Assembly: GCA_964658305.1 (NCBI GenBank)
Contig: OZ210885.1
Location: forward strand, 24,924,001-24,988,000
Source of the DNA: Leptogorgia sarmentosa
Lineage: Eukaryota
Length of the DNA stretch: 64,000 nucleotides
Reading direction: 5' to 3'
Shown one piece after another: positions 15,491 through 60,995 of the stretch (position 1 is the stretch's first letter; each line of letters begins with the position of its first letter). The notes beneath the pieces are model-generated. The model ran no database searches. It saw only the letters and a list, made by a program, of their open reading frames with translations, and was not told where the DNA came from. The position numbers were made by a program, and so were the translations under genes.

Positions 15491-15554
15491 GTTTGAAAGA
15501 GTCAGTCGCCATATTGAAATTCTATCATTTGAATACGTGAGTAAAATTGGAATA

Positions 15555-34519: not shown

Positions 34520-34810
34520 GCGCTAATTAGCATGCCAAAAAGTAATTAGTTTGCAGGGGGTTAATACGGCATGCAAAACGTTCGCGAGTAACAGTTGACA
34601 CCCGATGATGTGTGACAATTTCAAATAGTGTGTGTATTGTGATACGGATACGGTGGCCCAGAAGGGACAACACAATCAATAATTAAACCACTGCGATAAA
34701 ATTGAATTCGTGCAAATAACACAACCAATTCATTGCAAACAAAACATCAAACTGCAAACATATATTGAGTTACATTTTCCAACGACACTCTGCCAACAGA
34801 ATACAAAGTC

Positions 34811-35262
34811 ACGCTGCAAACAAAATAAAAAGCACGCTGCAAACAAAATAAAAAGCACACTGCAAACAAAATAAAAAGCACGCTGCAAACAAAATAAAAA
34901 GCACACTGCAAACAAAATAAAAAGCACACTGCAAACAAAATAAAAAGCACGCTGCAAACAAAATAAAAAGCACACTGCAAACAAAATAAAAAGCACACTG
35001 CAAACAAAATAAAAAGCACGCTGCAAACAAAATAAAAAGCACACTGCAAACAAAATAAAAAGCACACTGCAAACAAAATAAAAAGCACACTGCAAACAAA
35101 ATAAAAAGCACGCTGCAAACAAAATAAAAAGCACACTGCAAACAAAATAAAAAGCACACTGCAAACAAAATAAAAAGCACACTGCAAACAAAATAAAAAG
35201 CACACTGCAAACAAAATAAAAAGCACACTGCAAACAAAATAAAAAGCACACTGCAAACAAAA
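34811..35262. repeat. 23-bp tandem array (~20 copies) in the left TIR
   Basis: CA(C)(A/G)CTGCAAACAAAATAAAAAG unit, period 23. Confidence 0.95.
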
Positions 35263-35406
35263 ACTCTACACGAATGCGCGCGCAGATGTCAAAGGGAATT
35301 TCCTAAGGAAATATTTTTTGTAAGGAAATTTTGGAAGTTTACTTACATGATGAATGATGATTTGATGATTTGCATTCATTCGTGATTCATTCTCGCAAAA
35401 GCCAAA

Positions 35407-38400
35407 ATGTCGTCAAATCCGTCAATGAGAAATGAGATTCGCGAAGCCGTTCGAGAAGAAGTAACCCGTTTGCTTTCAGGCACTTCACCATCTACTTCTA
35501 CATCAGAAGAAACAAGACGACAATGCGATGACAAAAACCGTTCATCCTCGCGTTCATCAATCCCGTGTACCTCGCAATCTAGTTCGACGTTAACGTTCGA
35601 AGACTTTTATAAAATGCGTGAAAGCCAACGTCAATTAGGTTGTAAACCACAAAAAAAGAGGAAGAAAAGCCCTTCAACAAGCGCTCCAAAGAAATCGACA
35701 AACGTCGAAATTAAGGTTGGCATGGCTAGCCAGTCTGACGGAACTATTAAAACTCGCCGGGGTAAGACGCACGTGATAACCGTTAACTCATCTGCATCTA
35801 AAGAAGAGATCGTTCAAAAGGCTGTAGAAAAACATTCTAGTTTCGACCAGTCGTTTGATGACACTGTAGCATACGTGTTATTATACCCAGATTATCGAGA
35901 AGTCCATTGCATACCTGGAACTACGAAGCCCTTCGTACTCTCGGAATACAAACAGGCAATTTCAAAGGATTATAAGCGTCTTACTTTCTATCTCATCCCA
36001 TTGGACGATGTAGTAGATAATTCGGACGAAAGCGATCAAGAATCACGAAAATCCACGCCTGTACCTGCTGACATTCGCAAATATGTTTTCAATCCAATCC
36101 CTCCTGTCACTACCATTAACATTGACGATCAAGATGCTTTGTCAAAAGAATCTGCAGGTGAGGTATTTATCCAATACTGGTATAGTTGTATGACAGACAT
36201 GTTTAGTTTTGAAGATATTTCAAATTTTCCAATATTAAACGTGAATTGTCAGAATTGATATTATTATGTTGTGATACAAATGGATCAACTCAAAGGGCAG
36301 GGACTGGTTTATAATTTGAACCTCAATCCACAATGGACCCAAAGTGCACACAACCCAACACTTGGCAATTTTACATGATTGTCAATGTGGCATCTGTGCA
36401 GCTGAAATAGGTTAATTATATGTGTAAAAATATTAATTTTGTTATGGATAGAACTACTGAACATCACATAACTTGCATTATCATGGTGTAGTTTAACTGC
36501 ATGACAATCAAATTTCAAAATTGCTCTGCCACTCTTGAACATCCTGTCCTGTTCTTGAACATCTGTCCTGTTGTCAGTGCTCACTTGCCCTCCTAACTCA
36601 AAAATGACAGTTGTTTATACTGTAAAAATCAATAAATTGTTCAATTTTAAATTATTTTAAATAAGATATTGAGGAATCACATTGCTCAGTGCTTACAAAA
36701 TTTATCATAGTCACAATCACTGTGGATGCCTATGATTGAATACATTTCCATTTAGTACAATGCTTGATTGTGCTTATTGCTTAGCAGCTGTAGTTCAGTT
36801 GGCAAAGTGCTGCACTAAAATCTACTGGGTGGCAAGTCAATTCCTGCCACCAGAATGAGTGTTGTATTTCTTGCAGCATTCCTGGATCGTCTACTTGTTT
36901 GCAATCACGTTTTCCGAGAGTATTTGCATATTCTATAATGTTTTTGTTTCTATTGCAGTGCATGGTGTAGAGTGTCCAACCTGTTTCAACAAATTTCCTG
37001 TAGATGAAATCTTGCAGCATGCTGATTTATGTGCTTCTAGTATGATTGATTGGGACGTAAGCAATCCAAATGTTATGCCAGAAGATAGCAAATTAGATGA
37101 ACTTGCTAGTGAATTGTGGGATGATGATCCCATTGAGCTGCACACTCACCAATCATTAATCAACAAAGCCAAAGAAAATATGGAAACTGGGCAAACAATC
37201 AGGATTAATGTAACCAGAAAAACATTATGGGATGATTTTACTCGTGAAAGAGCAAGGCGACTAAAACCTAGCAAAATGTTGAAAGTTGTGTTTGTTGATG
37301 AACCGGCAATTGACGATGGTGGCCCACGCAGGGAACTCTTTTCAGGTAATCTCTGTCAAGAATCATGTGGGAAATTTTGTATTCTACATGAGGGGATGTT
37401 TCTCCATGTATAAATAGTTGCTAGGGTGGGAGCAACATCGTCCACCGTGCTTATGTAAATTTTTGTTCACTGTAGATATGTTGGAACTTGCAAAGCGGAA
37501 ATTGTTTCAAAATGGGTGGCCAGTTAAGTCAGTGATTGCTCTTTCTTCCCAGCAATTCCGTTTAGTTGGAGAATTGATGGTTATGTCGATATTACAAGGG
37601 GGACCTGTAACTGAATACAGAATACAGAAACGGCGTTTTCAAAACGAAAAGTATATTTACAAGTAATTACCATTTCACCATGAGCATGTCGCAAATTTCA
37701 CTTGGGCAAAGTAATATATGATCGATGCAAGTGCATTTATATTGTAGATCAATATGCATAAAAGATCAGTTTTCTGATTACTTGCCCCAATTAATGCAAC
37801 TGGAGGAGGGTTTGTCGACATGTGAAGTATTGGATTCCATTCAAAAGTTTCCAAGTGTTTGGAAAGCAATTTTCCATCCCAGTGACGACTTCAAGTTGAA
37901 TGCTGACAAATTTTTGGACGAAGTGGTCGTAGACTATAGCTGTTCACAGATATTGCGAGATAAAGAATTCGATACATATAAGTCATTTTGCAATGTGATA
38001 ATGCTTTATGATGATGGTAAGAGACTAAGAGTCAAACTTCCAAGTGCACATAGCACAGTATTTGTAAATGTACTGTATGTAACTTGAAACAAAATTTGAT
38101 GGGTTTGACAGTATTTATCCCCGATCTATTCAAAAGAGGTACTTGCAAATGACAGATCCACTGTCGCTTTGACTTTGGTAGGTCAATAAATTGTCTATAC
38201 ATTTTTAGGAATTGATGGAATTTATATGGATGAATTCGTGAAATGGATGACCGGTTCAAAAACCATACCACCCCTTGGATTTCCGAAAAAATACTCTGTG
38301 CGTTTCGTACATGGTTGTGAAGAAGGATGCCGCTGTCGACCTACAGTTTCTACATGCGATATTACATTGAAAATTCCAGTTCATCTGTCAACAGAAGAAG

Positions 38401-38459
38401 ATATGCGAGATGTTTTGAGATCAGCAATTAAGGACTGTGTCGGGTTTGGCAACATTTAA
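35407..38459 (+). CDS. Spliced G2E3-like HECT E3 ubiquitin ligase with UBZ-type zinc finger; probably internally deleted
   Basis: Exons 35407-36157, 36959-37345, 37476-~37606, 37748-38016, 38209-38459. Motifs CPTCFNKFPVDEILQHADLC, EPAIDDGGPRRELF, WMTGSKTIPPLGF, PTVSTC..LKIP, GFG. Splice phase mismatch after GGP at ~37606. Confidence 0.8.
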
Positions 38460-38887
38460 GCACATCCCTCGTTTATTGTTACGTTCATGCAGACTGTTCT
38501 ATTCAAGAGTTATCAATTAAAGCACAAAGACAAGATTATTCATTATTCTGATTGACGTTGCAATGACATGTCGTTCTTGGTTGCACCTTTTCACGGATTA
38601 TCGCCAAGTGACAGTAGGAAACATTCACGTTGGATATGATTTTCAGGTCCAGAAAATTACGCACTGTATCTATTATGTATACGGATATATTTACATTATT
38701 TTACCTAGTTTTGTTATTTCAATAATTCTTCACATTCATTTCGAACACTGCTGTTAATATCCAAGTGAGGAAAAACTACAACTTGACTGTAAAAGTTTAT
38801 GCATAATGCGTAACACCGTTCACATTATTTTGGGCTGAACGCATGATTATATACCGAATTTAAAGCATGAATTCTTGCAAGATTTTC

Positions 38888-40123
38888 CTAATTACCACGA
38901 GCAAATCGTGTTAGTTTTTCAAATAAGACACCAGCATCGCGGATGGATGATGGATGTTGTAGGGAATTGTTTTCCATGACATACTGAAAGTATTCTTCAA
39001 AAATTGAGTTCTCTTCGCTCTCTCCATCTTCCAATCTGTCCTCCATCTCTGCTATCTTTTCTGCTGAAACTGTATGCAAGCATTCATTGTGTCCAAACTC
39101 CTCAGGTAGGAAATACATCATGTCAGGAACACCTGAAATTGTGGCATGTTTTGACTTTCTAATGCGGTGTGAGTTCCAATAGTCTTTTACCTTGTCAAGA
39201 TCGGCCTGTAATAAATCTGCAAAGGAAAACCACAATGCTTCTCTATGAATGTCACTTGTGAGATCAAGTATATCAGACTCATGGAGATCATGAAAGAAAT
39301 CGATCCACCAACTCGAGCGTTGCTTTCGGAAGTGTGACCACTGGCATTCGATTCTCTGATTACGGGTGCTCGAGACATACTTGTGCGACTTTGAGCCTGC
39401 ATATTCATCGATTCCTTCTGCACGAAAATAACATTGCATTCCTGCTATTAAACCATTCTCAGTCCCAGGATCAGTGTACACACGAGTTGGACAACCCCTT
39501 GCAGCTTTGACATGCTTTAAAAAATATTTGGCTACAGAGCGTGGATTTTTATTGGATCGTTGTACTTCAAGCCAGATAATTCTTCTGCTGAATCCATCAA
39601 CACATCCGTGTATTGAAAAGCCGAAAAGCTTCAACTTATCATACCCATCGATATGCCAGCAGAAATTTGGGCCTGGCGAAACATAGGTCCTACGCTTCAG
39701 GCATCTACGTTTTCTCTCCTCCACGCCTTGGGGATCCACTTCTCTTAATATTGTCTCCACCACATGCCGCGGAACATTAATATGGTGTCTGATTCGTAAA
39801 ATGTGCCACATAGTCCTGTAACCATTCAGACTGTCGGGACCATTTCTAATCTCAAGTAAAATTAGGTCCCTTACCCGTCTTCTCAATTCGTCGTCCACTT
39901 CATGACGTCTTGACAATCCATAATCTTTCAGTCTTCGCTTGAGAGTTCTCTGATTAATCGTAATATTATGGTGTTTCTCTAGCATAAGAGTAATGTGCCT
40001 GTAAGTTAAACCCCGGTTAAAGTAATATTTAATCAATTCTTCCTCAGACCCATGTGGTAATTCACTATTTGTAGCAGTTTCGTTATCAGAATCCTCACTG
40101 AAACTTGACTCATCGGAGGCCAT
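38888..40123 (-). CDS. IS3EU-like DDE integrase-core transposase (411 aa, intact)
   Basis: N-terminal HTH (RTLKRRL); WHIDGYDKL..IHGCVDGFSR, TDPGTEN, STRNQRIE. Confidence 0.9.
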   Translation of the reverse strand: MASDESSFSEDSDNETATNSELPHGSEEELIKYYFNRGLTYRHITLMLEKHHNITINQRTLKRRLKDYGLSRRHEVDDELRRRVRDLILLEIRNGPDSLNGYRTMWHILRIRHHINVPRHVVETILREVDPQGVEERKRRCLKRRTYVSPGPNFCWHIDGYDKLKLFGFSIHGCVDGFSRRIIWLEVQRSNKNPRSVAKYFLKHVKAARGCPTRVYTDPGTENGLIAGMQCYFRAEGIDEYAGSKSHKYVSSTRNQRIECQWSHFRKQRSSWWIDFFHDLHESDILDLTSDIHREALWFSFADLLQADLDKVKDYWNSHRIRKSKHATISGVPDMMYFLPEEFGHNECLHTVSAEKIAEMEDRLEDGESEENSIFEEYFQYVMENNSLQHPSSIRDAGVLFEKLTRFARGN

Positions 40124-40190
40124 ATTGTTTTTTAAATATTACACGCAATCTCGTCCCCTAATTAAAGGTTGCGCGCGCACGGTTTTAAAC

Positions 40191-40388
40191 TTTTGTTTGC
40201 AGTGTGCTTTTTATTTTGTTTGCAGTGTGCTTTTTATTTTGTTTGCAGTGTGCTTTTTATTTTGTTTGCAGTGTGCTTTTTATTTTGTTTGCAGTGTGCT
40301 TTTTATTTTGTTTGCAGCGTGCTTTTTATTTTGTTTGCAGTGTGCTTTTTATTTTGTTTGCAGTGTGCTTTTTATTTTGTTTGCAGCA
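40191..40388. repeat. 23-bp tandem array (~9 copies) in the right TIR
   Basis: Reverse complement of the left array. Confidence 0.95.
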
Positions 40389-40726
40389 TGACTTTGTATT
40401 CTGTTGGCAGAGTGTCGTTGGAAAATGTAACTCAATATATGTTTGCAGTTTGATGTTTTGTTTGCAATGAATTGGTTGTGTTATTTGCACGAATTCAATT
40501 TTATCGCAGTGGTTTAATTATTGATTGTGTTGTCCCTTCTGGGCCACCGTATACGGAAGACCACATGTATTCACACATTGAATAGTGTTAATCCTATATT
40601 TGTTCATGGATTCAATGCGACAATTGACAAAGGGATTACTTAAAGTAAATTGACTGGTCACATTCATAGCGATGAGTGACAGTTTTTGTAAATGAGAATG
40701 CATTAGTTCGATATAATCCATGTAGG

Positions 40727-43700
40727 CCAGGTTGGAAAACTTGCACTCGCTCGCAGTTACACAACAATTTAATGCCAAATCTCGCGCCTTAAATTTGCTT
40801 TGCTCGCATCTATCATCCGCCGGCTGATACGCCTGACGTTCTTCGTTTCGCATAATTGCAGCACTACGTAAGAACGAAATACCATATTAGTGAATACTGA
40901 ACACAACTTTTTTATTAATACCAAATAATTAATGTACAAAATCTGATCCTAAAGAAGATAAGGATATTTAGGCGGCATGTTCTTGATTCTATGAATAACC
41001 TTTGACTGGTTATTTCTTCTAAAATAGTTTCTGATTGACCTTGGGTCACGAAGCATAGGTGAGTTATGGCTGTCCAAATATTTTCGAGCAATTCCTTCAA
41101 CCAGATTGTCTGTATTGTTACCAATTTGAGGAAGTAACCAATCTAGTTTTGTTCTTAGCTCCAAGATCTTATTGGACTGATGGCATCGCTGTCGTTGTGT
41201 ATCCATAATAGCATAGAAACTTTCGGCTACTGCTTCACTGCCACCCGAGGCCATTGCGATGTCTAGAGACAACATGAACTCCGGTCCAAGTTTAGTATAG
41301 ATGCATTCCACTGTGTATAATATTTCAATAAGCTTTGATTCATCTAATACAGCTTTAATTTTCTTTCCGTTAAGAAGAGTCAAGATGAAAGTTTGGCGTA
41401 TTCCATTCGACTGATCTCTTTCCAGTGAAACAAAGTGTTCTGAGAGATATTTTCCAGAAGATTGCATGCATGCTACGCCATACTCTTTAAGACTGCCCCA
41501 AAACATATCGCAAAGGCACTCTTTAAAACGATGATACAAGGCATCTGAACAGCTTGCATCTAGGTAATGCAATTCATCTTTCTTTTTCTGTACGCGTGGA
41601 AGCGATATTATATATCTAAACCATACTTCGAAATCCTTTCTTCCCATCGCAAGATAGCTGCTTTTGTCTTTAACACAACCGATTGCATTCTGGTTGTCGG
41701 AGTCAGAGCACCTAGTTCCTTCAAGAGCAATCAACAGCTTCTCAAAGTCAAAGCATTTAGCCAGAAGTTTCGAAACTTCTGCTGTACCATTGTTTAATCT
41801 GTTTTCTGACGAAGCTTTTAAATCCACAGCAAACTTTCTCAATTCTTCCATCGACTCGTCTAATGATCTTTCAATCCAGGTATACATTGGTTCGTCATTA
41901 TAATCAGGATGCACCATCCTATCGTTGCTCAGTAAATGCCATCCCTCGAAAAGCTGAACCTCCTGAAACAAATAGTTCTTAAGGTCTTGCAGATGCTTCT
42001 CGTAGCGCGGTGTACCGGTTGGATTCTCTACTATTGCTTCCATCCAGGAAAGCATTCGTTGACCCCAGAATACAATTTTCCCATGAAGAAAGTCCACACT
42101 TTGTGACAATACCATCAACTCACATAACGGTGCCGTGATGTCTAACAAGCCAAGCAGATCCACGACAAAATCTTGTCCGAACATCCTGTACTGCAAAGGG
42201 AAATCTTCATCTGCATTTGAATGGGTAGCTTGAAATGATTTTCTTAAGACTGGGAATGATTTTTCAATTGATTTCCATTGGCCAACGGCAGAGCTTAAGA
42301 AACGTTGAGCGGCAAACGGAACAATAACACTTGCCCGTTTTGAACTGTTTTTTTGCACTCAGGTCAAGTTGTGCAAAGCCTTTCCCTCTTCCCATCATGT
42401 GATTAAACTTATTCGCTCTCTTGATGAATTTGGTAAAGAATTCTTGACTTTCGCCAAACTTTCCTTCTTTTATGTCAGTTGCTGCCAGATTTAACAAATG
42501 GGTGGTATCCCAAATTACTGCTTGGCAAAACTGCAATTCTTCCGGAATTCTATGCCTTCCTGTCTCTTCCTGTATGGTAAAACCAAACTCGTGGGCTTGA
42601 TATGGACCGTCAGCAGACGTTCCACAGTATCTGGTAAGATCCTCTTCATTAAGGTTCAGTTTCAACTTAATCGTGTTCAAGAAGTTAGTGGCAAGTTCTG
42701 GGGCATTTCCACCGCTAACATCAGGAAATTCTTCCTCTTCCTCTGACTCATTTTCATCTTCGGAGTTAGATGATTCTTCACCTTCGTCATGATTCCTCGT
42801 GTAAACAAGTGGCGCACCAACGGGATAGGCTCGGCGTTTTCCATTATACATGAAGACAATATATGATGCTTGGCTAGTTCGTCGGTTCACTGTTCCTTTA
42901 TCCAGCACGCCAAAGAAATGCGGACGCACTTGAGTGCACTTGAGCTCCGTCTTTAGAACATTCGTTGTTTTTTCGTCAACAAAATCCTCTGCAGCAACAA
43001 GCATAGCAAGCACTTGTTTTCGGCTGTGTTGCCGCTGCCCAACGTCAACACCACAGTCGTCTAAAAATGCAACAAGAGTTTCATAGTGTGCCGCTTTAAG
43101 CTTAAGGTCTGTCACCATGCACTTAACTAAGTTCTTTGTTGCTTCAAGTGCTTTTCTATTACATTCCTTCTCTCTTTCAGATTCTTTTATAGCAAGATAA
43201 TGATGTTTTCCTTTAGCAGTTGTCGAGGTACCCAATAAATGCGCTCTCAAGACTGATTTCAGTGATCTCCAAGACGAATTTCCACCTTTAAGGTACTGTT
43301 CTGTCCTCTCCTTGTCATTCCATATTCCTGTCACTGGATCCCCATGGTTGAATGGGTTTTTCTTACGAGCTATTTGATATGGAGACACATTTTTTATGTT
43401 TTCTTTGCCTATAGCAGCTTTGAAACATACTTCACAACGTATCACGCTCTCAGACATAACTTCGTCGTAGAAAAACTCTAAACAGGGCACTTGGGCTACT
43501 AGTTCAGTTATATTTCTGATTTTCCGCCACTCGTCAAGATTATTAGCAATTTGCTGTTTGTCCAAAAGTTCATTTGGTTTCTCTTCATCTAAGGTGTCGC
43601 CTATTTTCATCTCTTTCATTAATTTAACTACCTCCACTGCAATATCTGTTGCTGATGGCATTTCAGGAACAGTGTTCACTCTGTTGCTTTGATTTGACAA

Positions 43701-45413
43701 GTTAACAGAACTGTTGTCAACTTCGATTGCTTTATGTTCGTTTATAGCATCAACCTCTGGATTTAAAAAGTTATTGATATTAATTTGGCTTTTACTGTTG
43801 GGTCTCGCTTCTGAATTCAACTCAAGCTCAGATGAAACTGTATCTGCTACATTGTTAATGGGGTCTTGACAACTATGCAGAGTGCTTCCTTCCTGGGTAT
43901 TGCAGGTACTTGATCCTAAAGAATCTTGTGTAAACGTAAAGATGCCCTGTAGTTCCTCTGGATGTTCACTTTCTCCTACATCTTTCTCTACACTATTAAG
44001 TCGAGCTCGTTTTGGAGATGATCCACCAGTGCCTAAATTGGTTGATGGCCCCTTTTTAGGTTTCCTTCCCAATTCTTCTCTTGCAAGCAAATCACGTCCT
44101 TCATTAGATGCCTTCAAAACAGTTGTTATAGTCACTTCTAAATGCTGCTTTGATTTCCTATGCCGCTCAATGTCTGATGGCATTCCATTTGAAATGGTAT
44201 AATATTTTCGATTATTCAAGAGACACTCTTTGCACAACAACTGTTTGGCGTTTCCACTTTTTTTCGATTCTGAGTTAGATGATGTTATATTTTTCTTTCC
44301 TTTCAACCACCATGGTACTGAAAATCCAAATTAATATATTAAGACATACACTCTTGACTAATTGGGGGACCAATGGACCATGAAATATTTATTAGACAAG
44401 AAATAAATACTAAACCTGTTGAAGGAATTTCAGTATCTTCTCCATTGGCAGACATTACAGTAGCTTACATTTCCATGCTCTTTATTCTATTGTAAAAAAA
44501 TTCAGTAAACAGTGTTACACATGATGTTAACTATTATATCTACGGACTACGGTATACTTTCAGTCTTTCACAACATAAAATGGCATGTTTGCATTTCAAT
44601 TTCCAAGACAAATCTACATTTATATATTATAGACTGAATTTATAGATTGCATTTATAAATTATAATATTATAACTTTTTTAATTGACAATATTAACATGC
44701 AGTGTTAGTATATGGTATTCCTTTTCTGGTGACTGGTGGGCTAAATAATTAGACTTATTTAAACCTGCAGTACAAGTACCAATAGGAATAGCTATAGCTT
44801 ATTGATTTGTATGTTTATAGAAATATGAATATTTATGCCTATATTTTATATATGAATTATGATTTAGTAAACAAAGCAAAATTCAATCCATGTCTCACAG
44901 AATGTACTAAGTAAATTGTACATTTATATATGACAATATTGTGAAGAAAATAAAAACAAATTATTGGCATGATACCTTTCAGTTTCATCAGTTCAATCGC
45001 AAATCGTTGTCGCAAGCTAAACTCGTAAAATCGTAAAGCATGGGATCGGAGAGTCCATGTGACCATAGTGTAATACTTCATCTATGCTCCATTGTTTTGT
45101 CTCAACAATTCCGTTATTTATAATTGTTAAAAATCGCCATATTAAACCAAAATCTACATCAATACATAATGCTCTCAGTAGGAAATTCTTCAGATTTCTA
45201 CCGACTTCTACTTTCAAGGCATTAACAATGACCTAGTGAGTTATAATGGTTTGATCAGTAATCAGTTGAGCCATGTTGCCTTTAAAAGTCACTCGCTGTT
45301 GTCGCTGACTCGCGGCTCGCTTGTGACGACAAGATTACTCGCAGGTCGCACCTAATCAGTTTTATACTCTCGCAGCTACGCGTAGCGGATTTGATACAAG
45401 TTTTCCAACCTGG
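40727..45413 (-). mobile_element. hAT-type DNA transposon with a divergent transposase
   Basis: 17-bp TIR CCAGGTTGGAAAACTTG; 8-bp TSD CATGTAGG at 40719-40726 and 45414-45421. Confidence 0.92.
40949..44455 (-). pseudogene. hAT-like transposase (~1140 aa; exons 44455-44416 and 44317-40949) with one frameshift at an A-run near 42350
   Basis: PWWLK, CKEC..H...H BED-like finger, LDKGT, ADGPY, WDTTH, QRFLS, SEAVAES; two overlapping ORFs in different frames. Confidence 0.8.
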
Positions 45414-46687: not shown

Positions 46688-48637
46688 AATATGGCCGCCA
46701 ACATTTCCATTAATTTATTAATAACTTGTGAAAACAACCCCTTTATACAATTAACGATATATCAAATTGAAGCCCGTAATACGGGACGTGTAATGATATT
46801 TGAACCACCGTCTAGCACCGTTTCGTTGCAAAGTTATAAGCAAAATTGTAAGATAATTATCGAAATTCATAAATCCAATATGGCCGCCAACATTTTTCAT
46901 TAATTTGTTAATAACTCATGAATAGAACATGCTTATACAACGAACGATATATCAAATTGAAGCCCGTAAAACGACGATTGTAATGATATTTGAACCACTG
47001 TCTAGTAATGTTTCGTTGCAAAGTTATAAGCGAAAATGTAATATAATACATAAGACAAGAGCATTTATGGCGCATCCGCATTCATCGCCATGTTTGTCAA
47101 GACGTTTCACCATGATGCACGCATTGTTTCTTGAGTATATATATTGTAAACATACTCACCGTCATCATATAAACATGGCCTACATGTTTGATGTCTCATA
47201 TGTTGGGCGTGGTCTCGGTTCACCAATGTTAAACATCATGGTGTGTGGCCACGCCCAGTTTGCGGTAAAAAAATTGTTTTTCTTAACATTCTGTTGTTCA
47301 GCGTCTGGGCATCTATAAAATGTTCACTACGTATCTGTAGCCTCTAAAACCACAGAGATATCGCATGGTAAAGTAGGTCAAATTACCATTTACGACCATG
47401 TTTAACGTCGCGTAGCCACCTTAATATAACTTTATAAGTTACAGCAAGCACCCAGAATCCTTACCTAATACATGTACTTTCACGTGGCAAAGCATGAAGT
47501 GTATTCACGTAAAGGTAAAAGAGATATTGCATGAACAGTTTTATAGAAATTCATATTAGATTTCAAAATCCAATATGGCTGCCAACATTTTTTATTAATT
47601 TGTTAATAACTCATGAATAGAACATGTTTATACAACAAACGATATATCAAATTGAAGCCCGTAATATGGGGCGTGTAATGATATTTGAACCACCGTCTAG
47701 CACCGTTTCGTTGCAAAGTTATAAGCAAAATTGTAAGATAATTATAGAAATTCATAAATCCAATATGGCCACCAACATTTTTCATTAATTTGTTAATAAC
47801 TCATGAATAGAACATGTTTATACAACGAACGACATATCAAATTAAAGCGCGTAACACAACGATTTTAATGATATTTGAACCACTGTCTAATAATGTTTCG
47901 TTACAAAGTTATAAACAAAATTGTAATATAATATATAAGACAAGAGCATTTATGGCGCATGCGCATTCAAGGCCATGTTTGTCAAGACGTTTCACCATGA
48001 TATACTCATTGTTTCTTGAGTATATATATTGTAAACATATTCGACATCATCATATAAACATGACCTATCTGTTGGATGTCTCATATGATTGGGCGTGGTC
48101 TCGGTTCACCAATGTAAACATTATGGTATGTGACCACGCCCCGTTTGGAGTACATAATTTCTGTTTTCGCACATTCCGTTACTCTGTATCTGGGCATCGA
48201 GCAAATGTTCACTGGGTTTCTGTAGCTTTGAAAACCTCAGAGATATTGCATGGTAAAATAGGTCAAATTACCATTTATGACCATGTTCAACATCACATAG
48301 CCACCTTAATATAATTTTATAAGTTACAGCAACCACCCAGAATCCGTCTCTAGTACATGTACTTTAATGTGTCAAAGAATGAATAGCATACATAGAAACC
48401 TACAGGAGATATGGGATGAAAAGTTGAAAAAAAAATACCAACATGCACCATTAAAATTTTACTAACTCTTCTGCATTAATTTCTCAAACTTTTCTTCCCA
48501 GTTCTCTTGTAGGTTACCATGTATGCTATTCATTCTTTGACACATTAAAGTACATGTACTAGAGACGGATTCTGGGTGGTTGCGGTAACTTACAAAATTA
48601 TATTAAGGTGGCTATGTGACGTTCAACATGGTCATAA
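46688..48637. repeat. Left arm of a ~1.95-kb inverted repeat (two ~890-bp tandem units plus a terminal hairpin)
   Basis: Reverse complement of 51787-53735; recurring AATATGGCCGCCAACATTT and GACCACGCCC. Confidence 0.88.
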
Positions 48638-48709
48638 TCAAATTTTGCACCATATTGTTGCGAATAATATATATCTATAAAACATATATATATATATTGT
48701 AAAGAACTT

Positions 48710-51449
48710 GTAAAGACTCGGTGTCCCAGGTATTTATTTTCCTGCCGCCACTGTATACCCAGGAAGCCGCTTTCTTCAGTGACGGCAGTTCTTGTACTTT
48801 CTTGGTTTCAAGGTAGTCATGTGCCTCCTGTGGCACAGCGCCCGCCAGCTTCGGATTCTGCAGACACTCTTTTTCCACGAGAGCAATTTCGGGCACCAAA
48901 CCTTTGCTCAAAACAACGCCAAAGACTTGTAGCAGCTGTTTTTTCTGCTGGACGCTCAATATCGGGTGGTCAGGTAGCTAAATAAAAAAAGAATTATGAA
49001 CAACGATATCTTTTGTGGGAGAAAACAATTTCCCAAAACTTTTTTATATCAGGTAGTTACCTTTCTTGTGCCGTTGCCTTCCTCCTCCTCGCTACCATCA
49101 TCATCATGATGAGAGCCTTCACGTGGTTGATCGATATCTGTCGTGTGTTCAGGTAGCTAAATAAAAAAAGAATTATGAACAACGATATCTTTTGTGGGAG
49201 AAAACAATTTCCCAAAACTTTTTTATATCAGGTAGTTACCTTTCTTGTGTCTTTGCCACCAGTGACAGTTTTTATAAATGTCGCCATGTGGAGGTCTTCT
49301 TTTTCAGTGTTGGCGACGTTATAAAATTGGTCAGCAGTACTGACCGCATGCGTCATCTGTTTGGCAAGCTGTTCGTTTGACACTGTTCACGACTCTCCTA
49401 GTTTTTGCTGGCCACTGATTATGGCTTTTCTTAGGCCAGCCCCGTGGATGTCGACGCCCATCCTTTTGCCGATGGTATTAATTCTTAATTCGGCTTACCC
49501 TGGACTCGTTGAGCACGTTTCCATTGCAGTTGATAAAAAACAGCGGCTCCGAAGGCAAGCCAGACTTCGCTTCCGAGACGGACTCGGCATTTGCGAACAA
49601 TGGTCGCATATGGGCCTTGTAGATGTCCCCCATTCGTTTCAGCTCGGCGTCCCAAAACAGCTTAGCTGGACCTTTAGATGTAGCAGTCTTGTGGTGGTGC
49701 GTCTGCGTCACAAACAAGTCGCCCGTCATCTGGCCGCGCTCATATTCCGCGACCGTCAGGTTTGCTAGGGCCCCACATCGCTGCCCACTTGCCATCAGTA
49801 GCCGTAGCATGAGAAAATCTCTCATTTCAGAGAATTCGCCCACTGACACCAGACGGTCGGGGTCCTCCAATTCTGTGAATAGTTCCCGAACGTCCTGGCT
49901 GGTTTTAGTTGCCAACATCCGGGAAAAATCTTCGGTACCAAGAAGACGCTCTTGGGCGTGGCTTTTACCTCCGCCCGACGCCGCGTCACCGCCATCGTTA
50001 ATGAACCTGGCCAGAAATCGAGGCGTGATAGAGCCGCCCGCACAAGCTCGAGATCACGATCGGTCAGCTTGTAGATCCGCATAATGGTCTCCACACGGCT
50101 TTGGACAAATTTTAAAAAGAGCCTGTATGACACGATGTAGGTCTTGAGGGTCTGCGCCTTCCTTGGTCTTTGGAGAAGATCGTTCCCTCGGAAGAAGTTG
50201 TTCCGAATCTTATCCAGGGACTCGTCGGCCCAGAGCAGACGGACATTTTTGCCGCTCGAATCAATCTCGTAGAGAAGGCGACAGACCCTCCTTGCGTGTT
50301 CCTTGGCGTCAGATTTCTTGCGATTTTTACCTTCGAACGAGGTTAGGTGCCGGTGGAAGAGTTGGAAGAGGGGATGTTGGGAAATGCCCGTTATTTTCTC
50401 GGGCAGTGGGTCGTCTTTTGGGGCCCTTGGTTCTCGTGACATCTTTTCGAGTTCTCTTTAGACGTCCCCCTCCCCCTCGTGACTGCCGTGCTCTGACGGT
50501 GACGATGGTGACGACGGCCTGGGAGAGGCGGGAGTTCTGCTCGACTCGACGGCAATTCCACGTCGTTTACGTCTTCTTTCGTCGTTTGCCATCTGAGTGA
50601 ATCTACGATAACAAAACATATGTGGTCAATTAATTGCTGCATAAGTACTGTTATTATTATTATATGTATGTAATATAAACATACTAACCGCCTGAAGTCC
50701 GGGTTTTCCGGGTCCATTTTGTGGACGCGTTTGAGATGGTTGTCCAATCTCAACTGCCATTTCTGGCAGTCTTCGATTGGACACTTCACCTTGATCTTTC
50801 CCGCTTCCATCGGTTTGAATCCCGAACTCACTTTGACGGCCTCTTTGTTCGTTTTGCCGTGCACGCGTCTTAGGTGCTTTGTCATATACGCCACCTCGGC
50901 GTCGCAAAGTTGGCATTGACGCCTCTTCCTCTCGTACTAAAATAAAATAAACACCTTTTAATATATAACTCGAAAAATATATATCTAATATATATAATAT
51001 ATTATATAGAATATATATATCTATATATATAAAATATAACACGGCACGAACCTTCCCTTTCCTATTCCCCGCATCTTCAACCTCTTCCTCTGAGGGGGAA
51101 GATGGTTCTTGCCGTGGTGCAGCTGGTGCAGTTGGTGCAGTTGGTGCAGTTGGTGCAGCTGATGCGGCTCGTTTCTTAGCCTTCTTTCGCGGAGATGGGG
51201 CCATAATGTCAATACCGTGGAAAATCTCGAGATCTTCCTGGGCTAAAGTTTTATTATCAAAGAGATAATTTAAATTAATATAACTTTATAAATACATAAC
51301 AGTTGGAAATACGTTATTATAATTCACAAAGATATATATACCTTTCACTTCCGAAAACTCTGCTGGAGTAGGCTCGTACTCCGACTCACTGGACAGCTCC
51401 GAATCGCTGCTTGAAAATAGCATTGGTGTCTGCTTGGAAGAAGACATTC
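48710..51449 (-). pseudogene. Spliced tyrosine recombinase gene with two N-terminal C2H2-like fingers; frameshifts and in-frame stops
   Basis: Manual translation: SGQRCGAL (R), HHKT (K), GLRKAII (R), LAKQMTH..TADQFY (H, Y); CQLC..HLRRVH and CPIEDC..HLKRVH; frameshifts ~49960 and ~49480; TGA ~49388. Confidence 0.85.
48969..49250. repeat. Two identical ~100-bp intron-containing segments, 180 bp apart
   Basis: TCAGGTAGCTAAATAAAAAAAGAATTATG...GTAGTTACCTTTCTTGTG at 48969 and 49149. Confidence 0.85.
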
Positions 51450-51786
51450 TAAATAAAATATAAATTTGAATGTTCATGAATAATGTTAATGGATGAAAAA
51501 CGATTCAGAATCACAGAATTTTTTCTTGAGTATATATATATTGTGAAAATGTTTCCGGCAACCATATAAACATTATCAAAATGATTCTGGTCTCATATGA
51601 CTGGGCGTGGTCGCGATTCACCAATGTAAACATTATGGTATGTGACCGCGCCCCGTTTGGAGTACATAATTTCTGTTTTCACACATTCTGTTACTCTGTA
51701 TCTGGGCATCGAGAAAATGTTCACTGGGTTTCTGTAGCTTTGAAAACCACAGAGATATTGTATGGTAAAGTAGGTCAAATTACCAT

Positions 51787-53735
51787 TTATGACCATGTTC
51801 AACTTCACATAGCCACCTTAATATAATTTCATAAGTTACCGCAACCACCCAGAATCCGTCTCTAGTACATGTACTTTAATGTGTCAAAGAATGAATAGCA
51901 TACATGGTAACCTACAAGAGAACTGGGATGAAAAGTTTGAGAAATTAATGCAGAAGAGTTGGTAAAATTTTAATGGTGCATGTTGGTATTTTTTTTTCAA
52001 CTTTTCATCCCATATCTCCTGTAGGTTTCTATGTATGCTATTCATTCTTTGACACATTAAATTACATGTACTGGAGACGGATTCTGGGTGGTTACTGTAA
52101 CTTATAAAATTATATTAAGGTGGCTATGTGATGTTGAACATGGTCATAAATGGTAATTTTACCTATTTTACCATGCAATATCTCTGAGGTTTTCAAAGCT
52201 ACAGAAACATTGAACATTTTCTCGATGCCCGGACACAGAGTAACAGAATGTGCGAAAACAGAAATTATGTACTCCAAACGGGGCGTAGTCACATACCATA
52301 ATGTTTACATTGGTGAACCCAGACCACGCCCAATCATATGAGACATCCAAAATATAGGTCATGTTTATATGGTGATGGTGAGTATGTTTACAATATATAT
52401 ACTCAAGAAACAATGAGTATATCATGGTGAAACGTCTTGACAAACATGGCCTTGAATGCGCATGCGCCATAAATGCTCTTGTCTTATATATTATATTACA
52501 ATTTTGTTTATAACTTTGTAACGAAACATTATTAGACAGTGGTTCAAATATCATTACAATCGTCGTGTTACGCGCTTTAATTTGATATATCGTTCGTTGT
52601 ATAAACATGTTCTATTCATGAGTTATTAACAAATTAATGAAAAATGTTGGCGGCCATATTGGATTTATGAATTTCTATAATTATCTTACAATTTTGCTTA
52701 TAACTTTGCAAGGAAACGGTGTTAGACGGTGGTTCAAATATCATTACACGCCCCGTATTACGGGCTTCAATTTGATATATCGTTTGTTGTATAAACATGT
52801 TCTATTCATGAGTTATTAACAAATTAATAAAAAATGTTGGCGGCCATATTGGATTTTGAAATCTAATATGAATTTCTATAAAACTGTTCATGCAATATCT
52901 CTTTTACCTTTACGTGAATACACTTCATGCTTTGCCACGTGAAAGTGCATGTATTAGGCAAGGATTCTGGGTGCTTGCTGTAACTTATAAAGTTATATTA
53001 AGGTGGCTACGCGACGTTAAACATGGTCGTAAATGGTAATTTGACCTACTTTACCATGCGATATCTCTGTGGTTTTAGAGGCTACAGATACGTAGTGAAC
53101 ATTTTATAGATGCCCAGACGCTGAACAACAGAATGTTAAGAAAAGCAATTTTTTTACCGCAAACTGGGCGTGGCCACACACCATAATGTTTACATTGGTG
53201 AACCCAGACCACGCCCAATCATATGAGACATCCAAAATATAGGTCATGTTTATATGGTGATGGTGAGTATGTTTACAATATATATACTCAAGAAACAATG
53301 AGTATATCATGGTGAAACGTCTTGACAAACATGGCCTTGAATGCGCATGCGCCATAAATGCTCTTGTCTTATATATTATATTACAATTTTGTTTATAACT
53401 TTGTAACGAAACATTATTAGACAGTGGTTCAAATATCATTACAATCGTCGTGTTACGCGCTTTAATTTGATATATCGTTCGTTGTATAAACATGTTCTAT
53501 TCATGAGTTATTAAGAAATGAATGAAAAATGTTGGCTGCCATATTGGATTTATGAATTTCTATAATTATATTACAATTTTGCTAATAACTTTGCAACGAA
53601 ACAGTGCTAAACGGTGGTTCAAATATCATCACACGCCTCGTTGTACGAGCTTCAATTCGATATATCGTTCATTGTATAAAAGCGTTGTATTCACAAGTTA
53701 TTAATAAATTAATGGGAAATGTTGGCGGCCATATT
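51787..53735. repeat. Right arm of the ~1.95-kb inverted repeat
   Basis: Reverse complement of 46688-48637; mirrored spurious ORFs in the track. Confidence 0.88.
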
Positions 53736-56228
53736 GAATTAAGGTGGCTATGGGACGTTGAACATGGTCATAAATGGTAATTTGACCTAATTTACCATGC
53801 AATATCTCCGTGCTTTTACATGCTACAGAGACGTAGTGAACATTTTATGGATGCCCAGATGCTGAATAACAGAGGGAAAAAATTTTTTTACTCCAAACGG
53901 GGCGTGGCCACCCATCATAATGTTTACATTCGTATATCTCTGCGGTTTTAAACGCTACAGACATGTAGTTGCTGTGGCAAGCATTGCGTTGTAAACTCTT
54001 GTAGATGACTCTTGTCCCATGCCCCCATCATGCAACGCGGGGGAGAGACATATGGTAACGTATTTATGGTCTGACCACGCCCATTTTGGCAAAAAAATAT
54101 TTGAAACCACCAGATTTGTAATTGCTTGGTGGTATGCTAACTAAAATTATTGTTAAGGTGGCTCTGCAATTTAAACCTAAAAAGCTCGGCAAAACTAGGG
54201 TTAGTTTAAATTGAAAATTTGAAGCCTTTTGGGCCATTTTTCAAAATTCTAAATGGTACCCATAATTCCTTGGAATACCAAAAATTGGCCCATGGAAGTG
54301 GTTCCGTAAATATTGACGATGATGGCTGTTGAATTTTAATGAAGTTTGAAAAGTTTGAAAATATGTCATCGCAATTGCGTCATAAATTTTGAATTTCTCG
54401 ATGCGAATTTTTTTGTGGCGAATCCCCGCGCGGAGGACAATATAACTGTGGTGGAGAAATTTTCTGTTATTTAAACGCAGCGAAGATATCAAAAGACAAA
54501 GTTTTACGTATTGAATGGCTTATAAATGTCTCAAATTTTAATTTTTTTTAATGATTTTCACAAGTGTTATAGCACATGATGAGACGTATCAGACTGTGCA
54601 ATTAGATTTTTAAATGAAGCTATCCCCAGTCACCGAGCGTCCATTTTAGAAAAACACAAAATCGGCAATATCTCATGAACCAAGACCTAAAATGAAAAAA
54701 AAAAAATCATCTCGAGGTATTTCCAGGTGCTTCCACTTCACGAAGTTTGGTGTGTTTCCACTTTAAAAAAAAAAGTTATCGTGTTCGGAAAAAGGGCAAA
54801 ACATTGCCATAAAATACACATAAAAGTCGATATAAAAAGATACTGTAGCTTTATGAGAAAAGTTTACTTTTTAAAGTTTACACTGTCTGGTACAAAATTG
54901 GACGGGCTACAAGCTGAAAAAAAAACAAAAAAAAATGAACTCATTCCCAGGCCTGTAGATCGAGAAAACTGAACTTTGGAAAAAGTATTATATCTTCTTA
55001 CTGTTTTAAGATATTAAAAAACGGTAACGACAGTTAGGTAGCCTGCATCGACATGTACAAACGAGGAAAGTTTGAAGCAATTAGACCAGGGAGAAGCAGG
55101 AAAAATCCGGGGGGGAAGTTCTTTGGAATGGGTCCAAATGACCCCCCTATGGAGAAGTCGGTGAAGATCATCTTTTTCCGGAATTCTGACGACGGAATCA
55201 TGTTCACCACCCACGATTACCTATACACACCGAGTTTCAACCTCCTAGGTCCTTTCTAACCATAATTTTTTTTTTGTCAGGGCTGGGTATATACCACCAA
55301 TGTGTCACCATACATATACCTGACTTTTTGGGAGACCCTGGAAACTCTCATTTAGGACCATCTTAGGGTTTTCGGGGGTGCCCTACACGATGGAAAACAT
55401 GACAAACCCCCTTGGTTTGAATAAAAACCCTCTTCATGGGGCTGGTACACAGAACTTGTGCTTTTGTGGATTTCTTTCCTTCCAACCCCCCCTGAAGGCG
55501 CGCGTTTTAATATTTTTGAAAAATTTTTTTAAGGAATTGTTGCCCAGGTCCCAAAGTACATGTGTACCAAATTTCAAAAAAATCCACCATAACCCCCCCC
55601 CCAGAGGGTCAATTTCAAGGAAATTCCACAAAAGCACATGGTCCCAGTTAGGGCGAAGGTTCTTTCGCTGTTCCAATGAAACATCGTGTGGTTATTTTGA
55701 ATGGATACCTGAAGAATCGTTGAAACCGCAATTACCGCATAGCGTTGAAGAACCTTTTATACCGTCGTTCTACAACTATGGTGGCCCATCGTTATCACCG
55801 CAATTTTCAGGAATATTTCTATATCGTCTTTCATTTAAATAATTGTTTTGTTTATAAATTAAAGACATATGACAAAAAAAACTTATTTAGTGTATTTACA
55901 AATGTAAAATAATACTGATTTTCAGTTGTAATACAAATTGTTTCTTGTGTTAAACTGAATTTTTTTTTAAATGCAACAAGTTTCAGTAAATTAATTAATA
56001 TTTTGATTGATAACGCTGGGCCGTTCGAATTTTAGTTTTTGATCGGCCCAGAACTGCCCAACGTTATCAGTTTGCTCCATAAAGACTGGGTTCAATAATC
56101 AAATTTCCCGCTCTTTTTTCCCACCATTTCAAATTCCGCCATATTGATAAATTTCATATATTTGTCAACAGGCTTGTTGAATCCAATCATAGCTTGAGTA
56201 GTGTGGAATTATTCGTATGTAGTTAGCG

Positions 56229-57502
56229 ATGTCAAAACGGAAACAGGGCAAAGAGAGTTGGGAAGCTTTTGAAAGAAGAGTAGGGTTAAAGCGGACCCGT
56301 CAAGAGCGAAATCTTGCGTCGGATAAAAGAACACTTGTCCCAAATGACATATTAGTGCAGAGAATGTCAACTTCTCCCAGTGGAAGACTGAAAAAATACG
56401 AGCCGTTAGACACTAGAGACTTTGTCCCATTTGCAGAATATGAGGAACTTTCAATAGAGAATATTAAAGACGCTTGTGAACAATTCTATAACGCACCGGC
56501 GGGGTCGTGTGACATTCTAGCTTCGGACCGAGGACCATCGTGTACAAAAATGGAACAAATCAAGGGGAAAAAGGTGTATTTTATCCGTTTCTTACCACCT
56601 ACGGAGCTTAATACGACAAAACAGCCTACAGTTATGGGGTCAAATTCGTCGCCAATTTCGTCATCGAAGATTGCTAATGTTGATAGCAACCATCCTACAA
56701 CCCCTAAGACAGTTTATCCAAAGTCAGTTTCTATCGGGGATCTTCTTCGGGCTGGGAAGCTGGTACGACCTCCACAGTTAACAACTCTCACATTGGAAAC
56801 GTTTGATGTCGAAAAATGTGAATGGACAAAAAATAATTTGACTTTGTCTGTTGAAATAGAGGAAACCAAGTTTGACAGTGGAGCCTTCAGAGATGCCTTC
56901 CGAGCCAAATGCAGAGATACATCATCTGGCCTGGCAGGTGAATGGGTGATAAAGAAATACAGAGACGAAGCTGTTACCACCATACAGGAGCAGTTGCAAA
57001 TGTCTGTGGAAGATCATACAAGAAAACAAGTTCAAATGCATGCAGTTGCTCGGAATTTGACATCACGTTTCTCTGTTAAAGTGCCCCAGGAATTTGGAGA
57101 AGCTTTCCAGTATGGAAAAGTCTTTTATTCCCAATGGAATGAATGCCCAGTTACTGTTGAAGAATATGTAGAAGGTGTTTTCACTAAGTACATCAACAAT
57201 GATGGGGACATAATGAAGCCTGATGACATTGAATCTGATGAGATTTTCCAGAAAGCACAGTGCCTGGTTCACTTCACATACATATATTCTGAGAAAAGGC
57301 TAATGGTCCTAGATATACAAGGTTCAGCATATAAACTTATGACCCAGAAATTGTGACTACAGAGCTTATGGCAAAGACTGACAAATCCCATGAGGTATAT
57401 TTTTGTGCTGGCAACCTCTCAACTATGAGCATTAACAGTTTTGCAGATAGTCATGTGTGCAATAAATTTTGCAAGATGATGGAACTGCAGTCATTAAAAT
57501 AA
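56229..57502 (+). CDS. Intronless alpha-kinase (eEF2K/TRPM6-7/MHCK-type catalytic domain) with a 1-bp frameshift near 57338
   Basis: FDSGAFRDAF, WVIKKY, VEEYVEGVFTKYINNDG, HFTY..LMVLDIQG; the shifted frame continues YDPEI..FCAGNL..HVCNKFC to TAA 57502. Confidence 0.88.
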
Positions 57503-58037
57503 CATTGAACTTTTCAATTAGTTCCTTTACAAGTATAGATTTGACATTAGTTGTGTTTTCTTAACATTTTTACTGGTTACATTACATTTATGTATTATTT
57601 ATTGTATTATTGTATTACAAACTTTATTGTCCCTCCAGATGGCACAGATTGCTTCTCTGTGGGTGGATATTGAAGAGTTTTATACAATGTGAATATGAAT
57701 GTCAAGGTCTTCCAATTTTGTCTAAATTTTATAATAGAAAATTATACAGTTTAACAGTATTTCATGCATATAAACTCAAATATACATCCATCTTGGGTTG
57801 TTACAGAAAAAAATCCATACTCTGCCCACAGAGGAAATTCTGCTGCCCAGAAAGGGGGAGGGAAAAAATTGTTTCTGATAATAATAAATGTATTAGGACA
57901 TCTGAAGGGGGTAGAGGGGGGGGTTACTTCTTTTTTCTCTGTAGGGGTAGTATGAATGTTTTATGGAATGACCAATTAACCTAATTACTATATGTACAGT
58001 AACTCCTGAATATGACCTCAATGTTATAATAGTTCCT

Positions 58038-59264
58038 TCATGTTTCTGGTGGATAAGGAATGTTTTGCTTGAGGAATCGGTAAGCTTCAATTGCATTCTT
58101 AGCTTCAATGTTTTCAGGATTTGGAATCAGTCCCACACATTGTTGCCTTGTATTTGCTTCAATGAAATGAACTATGTGTTCTTCATCCATCACTCCTGAA
58201 ACGTCAGCAACATCCTGGATGTCATCCTCTGACAACTCAATTCCTTCATTTGTGGCTTCATAATTCTCAGGGAAAGAAAACATGTGGTTAGGTATGCCAA
58301 CAGGAATTTCCAACTTATCTTGTGCACATATTCTGTGTGAATTCCAGTAGTTAACAAAACTATTACATTCTCTTTGAACTATAGGTACATAAATATAAGC
58401 GAGCAATTGGCGATCATGTGCAAAGTCAGGATTGTACTCTCGTCTTTGCAGCAGGGCTGTTAACTGTTGCTTGAAGAATTTCTCCAACCTTTCATGCAAG
58501 TCTCGCCACCAACGCTCTATCTTATTGCTTGTTGACGGACCATAGATCACAGAATCTGTAGGGTCATTCATAATTGCAAATTTGTTTATGAGATATGAGT
58601 GAATAGTAGCCATTTTACCAGTTTCAGTTCCTCTGTCAATTCTCAAAAATCTAGGAAGGATCTTTGTTTCAAACAGATATTTTAGGTACATCTTACCCAC
58701 AACAAAAGGATCTGAGTTCGAAGTGCATACAAATAAGAATAAAATCTTTCGAGAGAAAGTGTCAAGGCATCCATATATACCAAGAGGGAATGTCCAGTTT
58801 TGGTAGCCGCAAAGTTTATCATGACCATCCAACGACACTACCCACAATGGACCTTCTGAAGTAAAATGTCCCTTTGGTTTTTTCCTCTTCTTCTGAAGAT
58901 TCCTTGCCTCTAATCCAGCTGGGTCCAAGTCTGCCATCATATTATGGACTACATGCCTTGGTACTTGTATCTTGTGATCTGTTCGTAGCTTCTGGTTCAT
59001 GGCTCGATAGCCTAGAAGTCTGCCAGGGCCATCTAATTCTTTTTGTACAGCTTCTGCTACTGCAGCTAGTGGAGTATCATAATTAATATAGTGAATATCG
59101 AAGTGACGAAGACGTCTATCAAGAGTAGCAAGACTCCATGAATACTCCGAATAATCGCGTCGCACAAAATCTAGTATTTCACATCGTCGTAAATTTTGAC
59201 CAACGTAGCATTTCAAGTCGTTCTGGAGCTCAGTATTTTCCTTCCAACTGATATTTTCAGCCAT
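58038..59264 (-). CDS. IS3EU-like DDE integrase-core transposase (intact)
   Basis: ATLDRRL, LLGYRAM, SLDGHDKL..IYGCLDTFSR, IDRGTET, STSNKIERWW; homologous to 38888-40123. Confidence 0.9.
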   Translation of the reverse strand: MAENISWKENTELQNDLKCYVGQNLRRCEILDFVRRDYSEYSWSLATLDRRLRHFDIHYINYDTPLAAVAEAVQKELDGPGRLLGYRAMNQKLRTDHKIQVPRHVVHNMMADLDPAGLEARNLQKKRKKPKGHFTSEGPLWVVSLDGHDKLCGYQNWTFPLGIYGCLDTFSRKILFLFVCTSNSDPFVVGKMYLKYLFETKILPRFLRIDRGTETGKMATIHSYLINKFAIMNDPTDSVIYGPSTSNKIERWWRDLHERLEKFFKQQLTALLQRREYNPDFAHDRQLLAYIYVPIVQRECNSFVNYWNSHRICAQDKLEIPVGIPNHMFSFPENYEATNEGIELSEDDIQDVADVSGVMDEEHIVHFIEANTRQQCVGLIPNPENIEAKNAIEAYRFLKQNIPYPPET

Positions 59265-59887
59265 ACAATCAAGCAAATACACACAACATTGAGTTGCACA
59301 AAAACATCGTGGGCATTTTCATGGTGTAAATAAATTAGCGGGAATTTAATAATTAGCGGGAAATTTGATTATTGAACCCAGTCTTTATGGAGCAAACTGA
59401 TAACGTTGGGCAGTTCTGGGCCGATCAAAAACTAAAATTCGAACGGCCCAGCGTTATCAATCAAAATATTAATTAATTTACTGAAACTTGTTGCATTTAA
59501 AAAAAAATTCAGTTTAACACAAGAAACAATTTGTATTACAACTGAAAATCAGTATTATTTTACATTTGTAAATACACTAAATAAGTTTTTTTTGTCATAT
59601 GTCTTTAATTTATAAACAAAACAATTATTTAAATGAAAGACGATATAGAAATATTCCTGAAAATTGCGGTGATAACGATGGGCCACCATATACAACCCTT
59701 GTCAAAATTGAAACATTTATAGAACATTATATATATTGCTAGTTGATTTGGAACCGTTTAAATGCATAGAGTACAGCTGATTTTGTAATGTTCTAAGTAC
59801 ATAGTAAAACGTATTTGCAAATGGTTTTAAATATATATTTGAAATGCTTCACGATATCATGCTCATTTGATTTTGTCCTGGGGAAAG

Positions 59888-60248: not shown

Positions 60249-60324
60249 ATAAATTCCATGTAAATTTTTAAAGTGTTATAAGAGTGTACGTGTGTGTGAA
60301 TTTAGATTCATTTTATTATTTGCA

Positions 60325-60960: not shown

Positions 60961-60995
60961 AACAAGGTACGTTATCAAACTTAGTCATTATCAAG

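Follow-up and report, generated by a model that had tools for sequence, protein, structure and literature searches.

The DNA analysed here, referred to as the window, comprises 64,000 nt of Leptogorgia sarmentosa contig OZ210885.1. It contains two complete transposable elements, named E1 and E2, each of which carries a transposase gene on the minus strand and a second gene on the plus strand facing it (Table 1).

Table 1 Features of elements E1 and E2 (window coordinates)
Feature	Position	Strand	Evidence
E1, complete IS3EU/GingerRoot-type element, HECT type (5903 bp)	34649..40551	.	ends, TSD, TIR, Pfam
E1 left TSD, TACGGA	34643..34648	.	sequence match with right TSD
E1 right TSD, TACGGA	40552..40557	.	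sequence match with left TSD
E1 left TIR, ~20 copies of 23-bp unit	34649..35262	+	repeat analysis
E1 right TIR, ~9 copies of 23-bp unit	40191..40551	-	repeat analysis
HECT E3 ligase second gene, broken copy	35407..38459	+	splice sites, X5 GT..AG joints, Pfam HECT
HECT gene exons	35407-36157, 36959-37345, 37476-37607, 37748-38016, 38209-38459	+	splice sites and run X5
Predicted beta-grasp (ubiquitin-like) domain of HECT protein	35695..36012	+	AF2 pLDDT 94.7; Foldseek and VIA, Z 8-9
21-nt filler at HECT N-lobe deletion	37608..37628	+	X5/X6 diverge after 37607; X4 rejoins at 37629
E1 DDE transposase, 411 aa, intact	38888..40123	-	Pfam rva_4 E=1.7e-34; D159/D218/E259
E2, complete IS3EU/GingerRoot-type element, alpha-kinase type (3914 bp)	55777..59690	.	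ends, TSD, TIR, Pfam
E2 left TSD, TACAAC	55771..55776	.	sequence match with right TSD
E2 right TSD, TACAAC	59691..59696	.	sequence match with left TSD
E2 left TIR, 343 nt	55777..56119	+	repeat analysis
E2 right TIR	59348..59690	-	repeat analysis
Intronless alpha-kinase second gene; predicted N-terminal beta-grasp aa 33-127	56229..57502	+	Pfam, fold prediction
E2 DDE transposase, 407 aa, intact	58038..59261	-	Pfam rva_4 E=5e-20; D145/D209/E249

Two IS3EU-type elements and their transposases

Both elements possess TAYGGTGGCCCA ends, perfect 6-bp target site duplications (TSDs) and long, near-identical terminal inverted repeats (TIRs). The terminal pattern is found once per strand per element, in four places, and nowhere else in the window; chance is therefore excluded. 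The E1 arms show 3 mismatches over their first 361 nt, including the 23-bp tandem array; the E2 arms show 0 mismatches over 336 nt. The sequence TGCGCGCGCA lies just inside both E1 TIRs (35275, 40170) and is absent from the rest of the window, while two of the window's six TTTCCCGC sites, presumably an E2F-like motif, fall at the inner ends of the E2 TIRs (56104, 59356). Each sequence is a possible shared promoter feature of the element in which it occurs.

Family assignment was made from the termini, TSD, DDE transposase and second gene. E1 and E2 have TA..TA (TAYGG..CCRTA) termini with TIRs longer than 30 bp, a 6-bp TSD (as do relatives, with AAAAAG, GTAGAT and GATTAA), an integrase-like DDE transposase (Pfam rva_4; D-D-E motifs) and a second protein-coding gene. 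The same TA..TA termini, 6-bp TSD and integrase-like transposase are described for IS3EU/GingerRoot in the available text of Kojima and Bao 2023 (PMC10045372) and Cerbin 2019 (PMC6839031), and two proteins are described in that of PMC8232023; coral relatives are also noted in this literature. We conclude that E1 and E2 are real, recently inserted IS3EU-type elements. The first-pass annotation had recognised the TA(C/T) termini, the TSDs TACGGA and TACAAC, the intact minus-strand integrase-core genes of ~410 aa and the convergent second gene of each element, all of which were borne out at the positions in Table 1.

Its view that both elements share one chassis was not upheld. The two transposases are 31% identical and belong to separate deep clades: a quick tree, built from 68 rows, groups 10 E2-like transposases on a single branch (SH-aLRT 97) apart from the E1-type clade. 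The closest named homologues belong to octocorals and stony corals, which makes an anthozoan host likely. Viral contigs searched with the E1 transposase, and GTDB contigs searched with the E2 transposase, yielded no relatives, and the transposase profile matched no solved structure.

The window contains other element-like sequences. A BEL/Pao LTR retrotransposon (14334-21795) has a 1948-aa open frame (15441-21287) and identical direct repeats at 14521 and 21497, and a hAT transposase ORF of 754 aa (DUF4371, Dimer_Tnp_hAT) occupies 26039-28303 (+). Two long coding regions, 21606-25080 (+) and 40949-44330 (-), are 34% identical over 279 aa and have no Pfam match; we read them as what appears to be a DDE transposase family that has not been classified. 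E1 lies ~400 nt past the latter region. Large nested inverted repeats of foldback-like appearance occur at 31929-34519 and 46655-53933, with 584-nt arms and arms of up to 985 nt with an 885-bp periodicity. Finally, 60253-63960 holds a P-loop ATPase ORF (weak AAA_16 and terminase matches) together with a basic repeat protein and an ORF of 361 aa that has no library match, an arrangement that we take to resemble an endogenous Polinton/adintovirus-like element.

The second genes of E1 and E2

The HECT C-lobe of E1 is recognised by Pfam (E=5e-9) and the catalytic cysteine is placed by the alignment of relatives; the start of exon 4 (37748) was inferred from an X5 contig end and an AG. A complete N-lobe is lacking. 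The X5 and X6 contigs depart from the window after 37607 and proceed with N-lobe-like codons, and the X4 contig returns to the window sequence at 37629; the window copy has therefore suffered an internal deletion with a 21-nt filler. HECT genes of related loci possess long N-lobes. Three GT..AG joints at predicted HECT introns were present in run X5 only, a run whose type is not on record; the joints imply an RNA run, and thus a probable spliced transcript of a less damaged HECT copy. Contig depth in X1 is ~65-70 over the whole of E1, and a single relic, diverged and deleted, was seen besides; this hints at one copy, though depth is not a copy number.

The E1 gene had been described as a UBZ-finger/HECT ligase. 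The HECT part of this description stands for the C-lobe, whereas the finger is a motif match (CPxC-x11-H-x3-C, which we take to be a UBZ finger) with no Pfam match in the window HECT exon ORFs. Neither were PHD or RING zinc fingers, the N-terminal domains expected of a host G2E3 orthologue, matched by Pfam in the 5 exon ORFs or in four of four G2E3-named proteins (P0241, P0242, P0244 and P0245).

The claim of an alpha-kinase in E2 was confirmed by Pfam (Alpha_kinase, E=3e-22) and by the predicted fold, which matches the TRPM7 kinase 1ia9 (Z 20.5, rmsd 2.8, 192 aligned) and retains the catalytic K/E/D residues. Residues K242, D362, Q364 and G365 are invariant in 54/54 aligned proteins. The fused channel domains of TRPM6/7 are missing; the gene is a single short ORF inside the TIRs with a Pfam match to alpha-kinase only. 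A frameshift near 57337 leads to a stop at 57356, with loss of a zinc-binding tail whose HxCxxxC motif is present in 49/54 aligned proteins and which is in frame in a 99% identical database protein (P0147). Assembly error is an unlikely cause: a contig of run X1, possibly the source sample, shows 0 differences from the window over 56083-58011. Thus both second genes are present but damaged in these copies, by the N-lobe deletion in one and the frameshift in the other, a point not made in the first-pass annotation.

Searching for kinase relatives returned 220 matches of ~420 aa, which in corals and tunicates go under the names TRPM6-like, MHCK-D-like or eEF2K, and none in the viral or GTDB contigs searched. 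An E2-type transposase (P0265) and a kinase homologue (P0437) come from contigs of equal size (51945), 1 match among 20 clusters. The probable kinase-transposase link in animals rests on the window together with this one contig match. Over E2, X1 contig depth is 70 for the kinase, 112-155 for the transposase and 233 for the TIR, and run X1 contains three unlike flanks at 55777; depth is not a copy number, but the two observations hint at about two copies.

Structure prediction placed a beta-grasp fold at the N-terminus of each second protein. The HECT N-domain model aligns with the plexin B1 RBD (Z 9.0, rmsd 3.0, 86 aligned) and with ubiquitin (Z ~8); the kinase N-domain model is a weaker match, to CIDE, the BAG6 UBL and ubiquitin (Z 6.2-6.5, 67-78 aligned). 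In both proteins a short helix and a basic run come before the domain, and a low-complexity linker comes after it. Sequence homology between the two domains was not detected (hhalign 0.2-2%), and common ancestry of the modelled folds is unproven. Unnamed clusters resembling the HECT N-domain occur in molluscs and chordates. Both enzymes thus appear, from the models, to sit behind a predicted ubiquitin-like domain, an arrangement that is new here. A complex prediction for the E1 transposase with the HECT beta-grasp domain scored 0.03, which counts neither for nor against an interaction.

HECT cargo and transposases in related loci

Related loci were drawn from one metagenome scan with an E1-weighted alignment, the best 80 of 477 transposase relatives being taken by likeness to E1, a choice that biases the sample towards E1-type elements. 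When second-ORF domains were tabulated in these 80 E1-type loci, HECT recurred. A convergent HECT gene was detected in 36/80 with a profile seeded from these loci, and in every case it followed the transposase gene and was encoded on the other strand. The count was 28/35 for loci with a flank of at least 1500 nt, 24/30 for non-redundant families at 90% identity and, by Pfam alone, 24 of the 55 loci scanned (199 downstream ORFs). The same slot and strand are used in 29/67 families. Two relatives with different TSDs, L020 (AAAAAG) and L026 (GTAGAT), are complete elements enclosing HECT.

HECT is lacking in 7/35 long-flank loci. The slot holds a LINE in L011, a GPCR fragment in L012 (HECT is present in the near-identical L013 and L015) and a canonical kinase in L058; L025, L048 and L070 are unexplained. 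The remaining locus, L067 (296-3180), is a complete 2885-bp element (TSD GATTAA) with a transposase and no detectable second gene. No trace of HECT was found by tblastn in 11 HECT-negative loci. The canonical kinase (L058:2956-4352, minus strand; Pkinase E=3e-41) is frameshifted and convergent with an IS3EU-type transposase, and element ends were not found; it is a possible third cargo class.

The catalytic cysteine is present in all 34 rows that cover its column, with 3 of 37 rows falling short of it. HECT dN/dS was 0.05-0.50 in the 8 usable of 21 close pairs, all 8 from two families; of the others, 10 were saturated, 2 were identical and 1 had a single silent change. On these ratios the HECT gene is under purifying selection, which together with its recurrence supports the view that it is an integral part of the element. 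The N-termini of the cargo vary, including UBX-like (L061:3225-4889 and L063:5360-5920, minus strand), zinc ribbon (L009, L020, L029, L075) and UBZ-like (window, L054) forms.

Comparison of HECT and transposase trees for 22 elements revealed partial conflict, with a weak correlation (Mantel rho 0.34, p 0.002). Only 3/8 supported HECT splits are common to the transposase tree, and there are 11 supported conflicts, which are non-independent. For the pair L013/L021, dS is 0.27 in HECT and 1.32 in the transposase. Likewise, the E1 HECT resembles the HECT of elements with a distant chassis more than that of elements with the nearest chassis: L005 and L008, whose transposases are the closest with a scorable C-lobe (72-74%), have HECT C-lobes 23-30% identical to that of E1, whereas L072, with a transposase 48% identical, has a C-lobe 55% identical. 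Taken with the separate transposase clades of E1 and E2, the picture is one of two lineages of old standing and of HECT modules that recombine between families.

A proposed role for the second gene

The reading that we favour, at a probability of roughly 0.65, is that E1 and E2 are IS3EU/GingerRoot-type elements whose convergent HECT ligase or alpha-kinase, preceded by a predicted ubiquitin-like domain, modifies some nuclear protein of the host to the benefit of the element. Start codons lie 68-145 nt inside the TIRs. We propose that the TIRs contain the promoters, each for the gene closer to it, so that both genes would be expressed together. The basic runs would act as nuclear signals, the beta-grasp domain would dock a substrate or partner, and the ligase or kinase would tag the docked target. 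This target would be a host factor that restrains the element, in silencing or DNA-damage surveillance; such a target would account for the rapid divergence, the shuffling of modules and the variation in add-on domains (zinc ribbon, UBZ-like, UBX). Within this reading, a host target for the enzyme has about even odds, and is favoured because modules move between divergent transposases. The window copies would either depend on intact copies at other sites to supply the second function, or be decaying. It counts against this reading that both cargos are broken and look single-copy in X1, yet the TIRs are near-identical and the transposases intact, so that the second gene may be dispensable in cis; the long-flank loci without HECT, L067 among them, count against it as well.

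An accessory gene beside a DDE transposase is a familiar arrangement, as in MuDR (mudrA/mudrB), VANDAL (VANC) and Zisupton (F-box/SUMO-protease domains). The two genes of MuDR converge, and long TIRs drive them. The transposases of these systems are presumably unrelated to those described here and, we assume, none carries a HECT ligase or alpha-kinase. MudrB is a precedent for a dedicated accessory subunit, raising the possibility that the enzyme acts on the element's own transposase, for activation, for disassembly after strand transfer or for self-limiting degradation. The near-universal presence of HECT in its clade, the fixed convergent layout and the significance of the tree correlation would all suit such a role, which is the main alternative but which we nevertheless consider rather unlikely: HECT domains have been swapped between transposases of 50-75% identity, and only 3/8 supported HECT splits recur in the transposase tree. 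The first-pass annotation had instead envisaged a freely exchangeable effector cassette, in which one chassis swaps ligase for kinase. E1 and E2 do share slot, orientation and domain order, and exchange of HECT for HECT among families is evident; a canonical kinase also accompanies a transposase that falls among HECT-type rows (L058). However, the swap of HECT for kinase is not supported, because an alpha-kinase is absent from all 80 E1-type loci (those most like E1 among 477) and the E2-type clade is separate, being a single supported branch even if in a quick tree; the ends of the L058 element, moreover, were not found. We regard this cassette as decidedly unlikely. Passive capture of host gene fragments that hitchhike and decay, in the manner of Pack-MULEs, is suggested by the breakage of both window cargos and by the uptake of gene fragments by clubmoss GingerRoot elements (described in the accessible text of PMC6839031). 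The recurrence of slot and strand across families, the invariant cysteine, dN/dS below 1 and an N-terminal module conserved across distant animals argue strongly against capture, leaving it highly improbable overall and, for HECT, largely refuted.

With regard to precedent, a 2025 paper states in its available text that IS3EU structure and function are largely unexplored (PMC11934779). The kinase architecture is nonetheless in print: according to the parts available of Kojima 2025 (PMC12730594), TET+ fungal IS3EU elements have TAYGG..CCRTA ends, and all their families have a transposase and alpha-kinase in opposite orientation. Those elements differ from E2 in coming from fungi, with a TET/JBP gene between; the kinase is treated in two sentences and animals are not included. 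HECT is absent from the main text and one supplement file searched of that paper. Term searches of the text available found neither HECT nor 'kinase' in PMC10045372, PMC6839031 and PMC8232023, no 'ubiquitin' in the first two, and no match in PMC12477816. In the literature searched, no paper joined IS3EU with HECT, or a HECT domain with terminal inverted repeats and a transposase. Thus, of the two architectures put forward as novel, the kinase pairing is known from fungi and is here extended to an animal. For the HECT pairing, the selection on it, its shuffling and the ubiquitin-like module, no printed account was found in the papers searched, prior mention, in Repbase for example, being possible.

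The findings bear on annotated animal genes. The first exon of the E1 HECT gene has matches in Paramuricea and flatfish that bear the name G2/M-phase-specific E3 ligase, and three 679-aa Paramuricea G2E3-like copies lie on different contigs. All three P0019 transposases are on contigs (456147, 62073, 198769) of the same size as those of P0244 G2E3-like members, an agreement that is indirect evidence but would seldom arise by chance. Some 'G2E3'-named genes therefore appear, on this co-occurrence and the lack of PHD/RING matches, to be cargo of these transposons, as had been suggested; for TRPM6-like genes the same suggestion has the one contig match in its favour. Canonical G2E3 has PHD/RING fingers and a non-functional HECT, whereas the E1-type protein has a beta-grasp N-terminal module and an invariant cysteine. 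The G2E3, GL-Metazoa and GL-Bikonta HECT groups of Grau-Bove 2013 are similarly highly divergent with varied domain arrangements, and 'transpos' does not occur in the text searched of that paper (PMC3673628). A Stylophora protein named as a heparan-sulfate sulfotransferase (P0243) starts with a HECT-type beta-grasp module (69% identity), which reflects either a gene model wrongly joined to part of an element or domestication.

More broadly, and tentatively, since we place the odds against it, the IS3EU superfamily might be organised around a protein-modifying enzyme of its own that disarms host restraint. In this enzyme a ubiquitin-like docking domain would be fused to a HECT ligase, to an alpha-kinase or perhaps to a canonical kinase. 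Most lineage-specific 'G2E3-like' and short 'TRPM6-like/MHCK-like' expansions in animals would then be these genes, and the dead HECT of vertebrate G2E3 may have been domesticated from one of them.

Annotation should allow for the fact that 'G2E3' genes in several copies can be cargo of transposons. A hadal sea cucumber has 20 copies of G2E3, interpreted as a DNA-repair adaptation in the available text of PMC9700323, and that claim becomes checkable. For the family itself, the HECT ligase gives a name to the second IS3EU protein of a large animal clade. A ubiquitin ligase that is apparently selected and transcribed, and that belongs to the usual gene set of a cut-and-paste transposon in animals, would allow a direct test, through the proteins that it ubiquitinates, of how DNA transposons manipulate the host.
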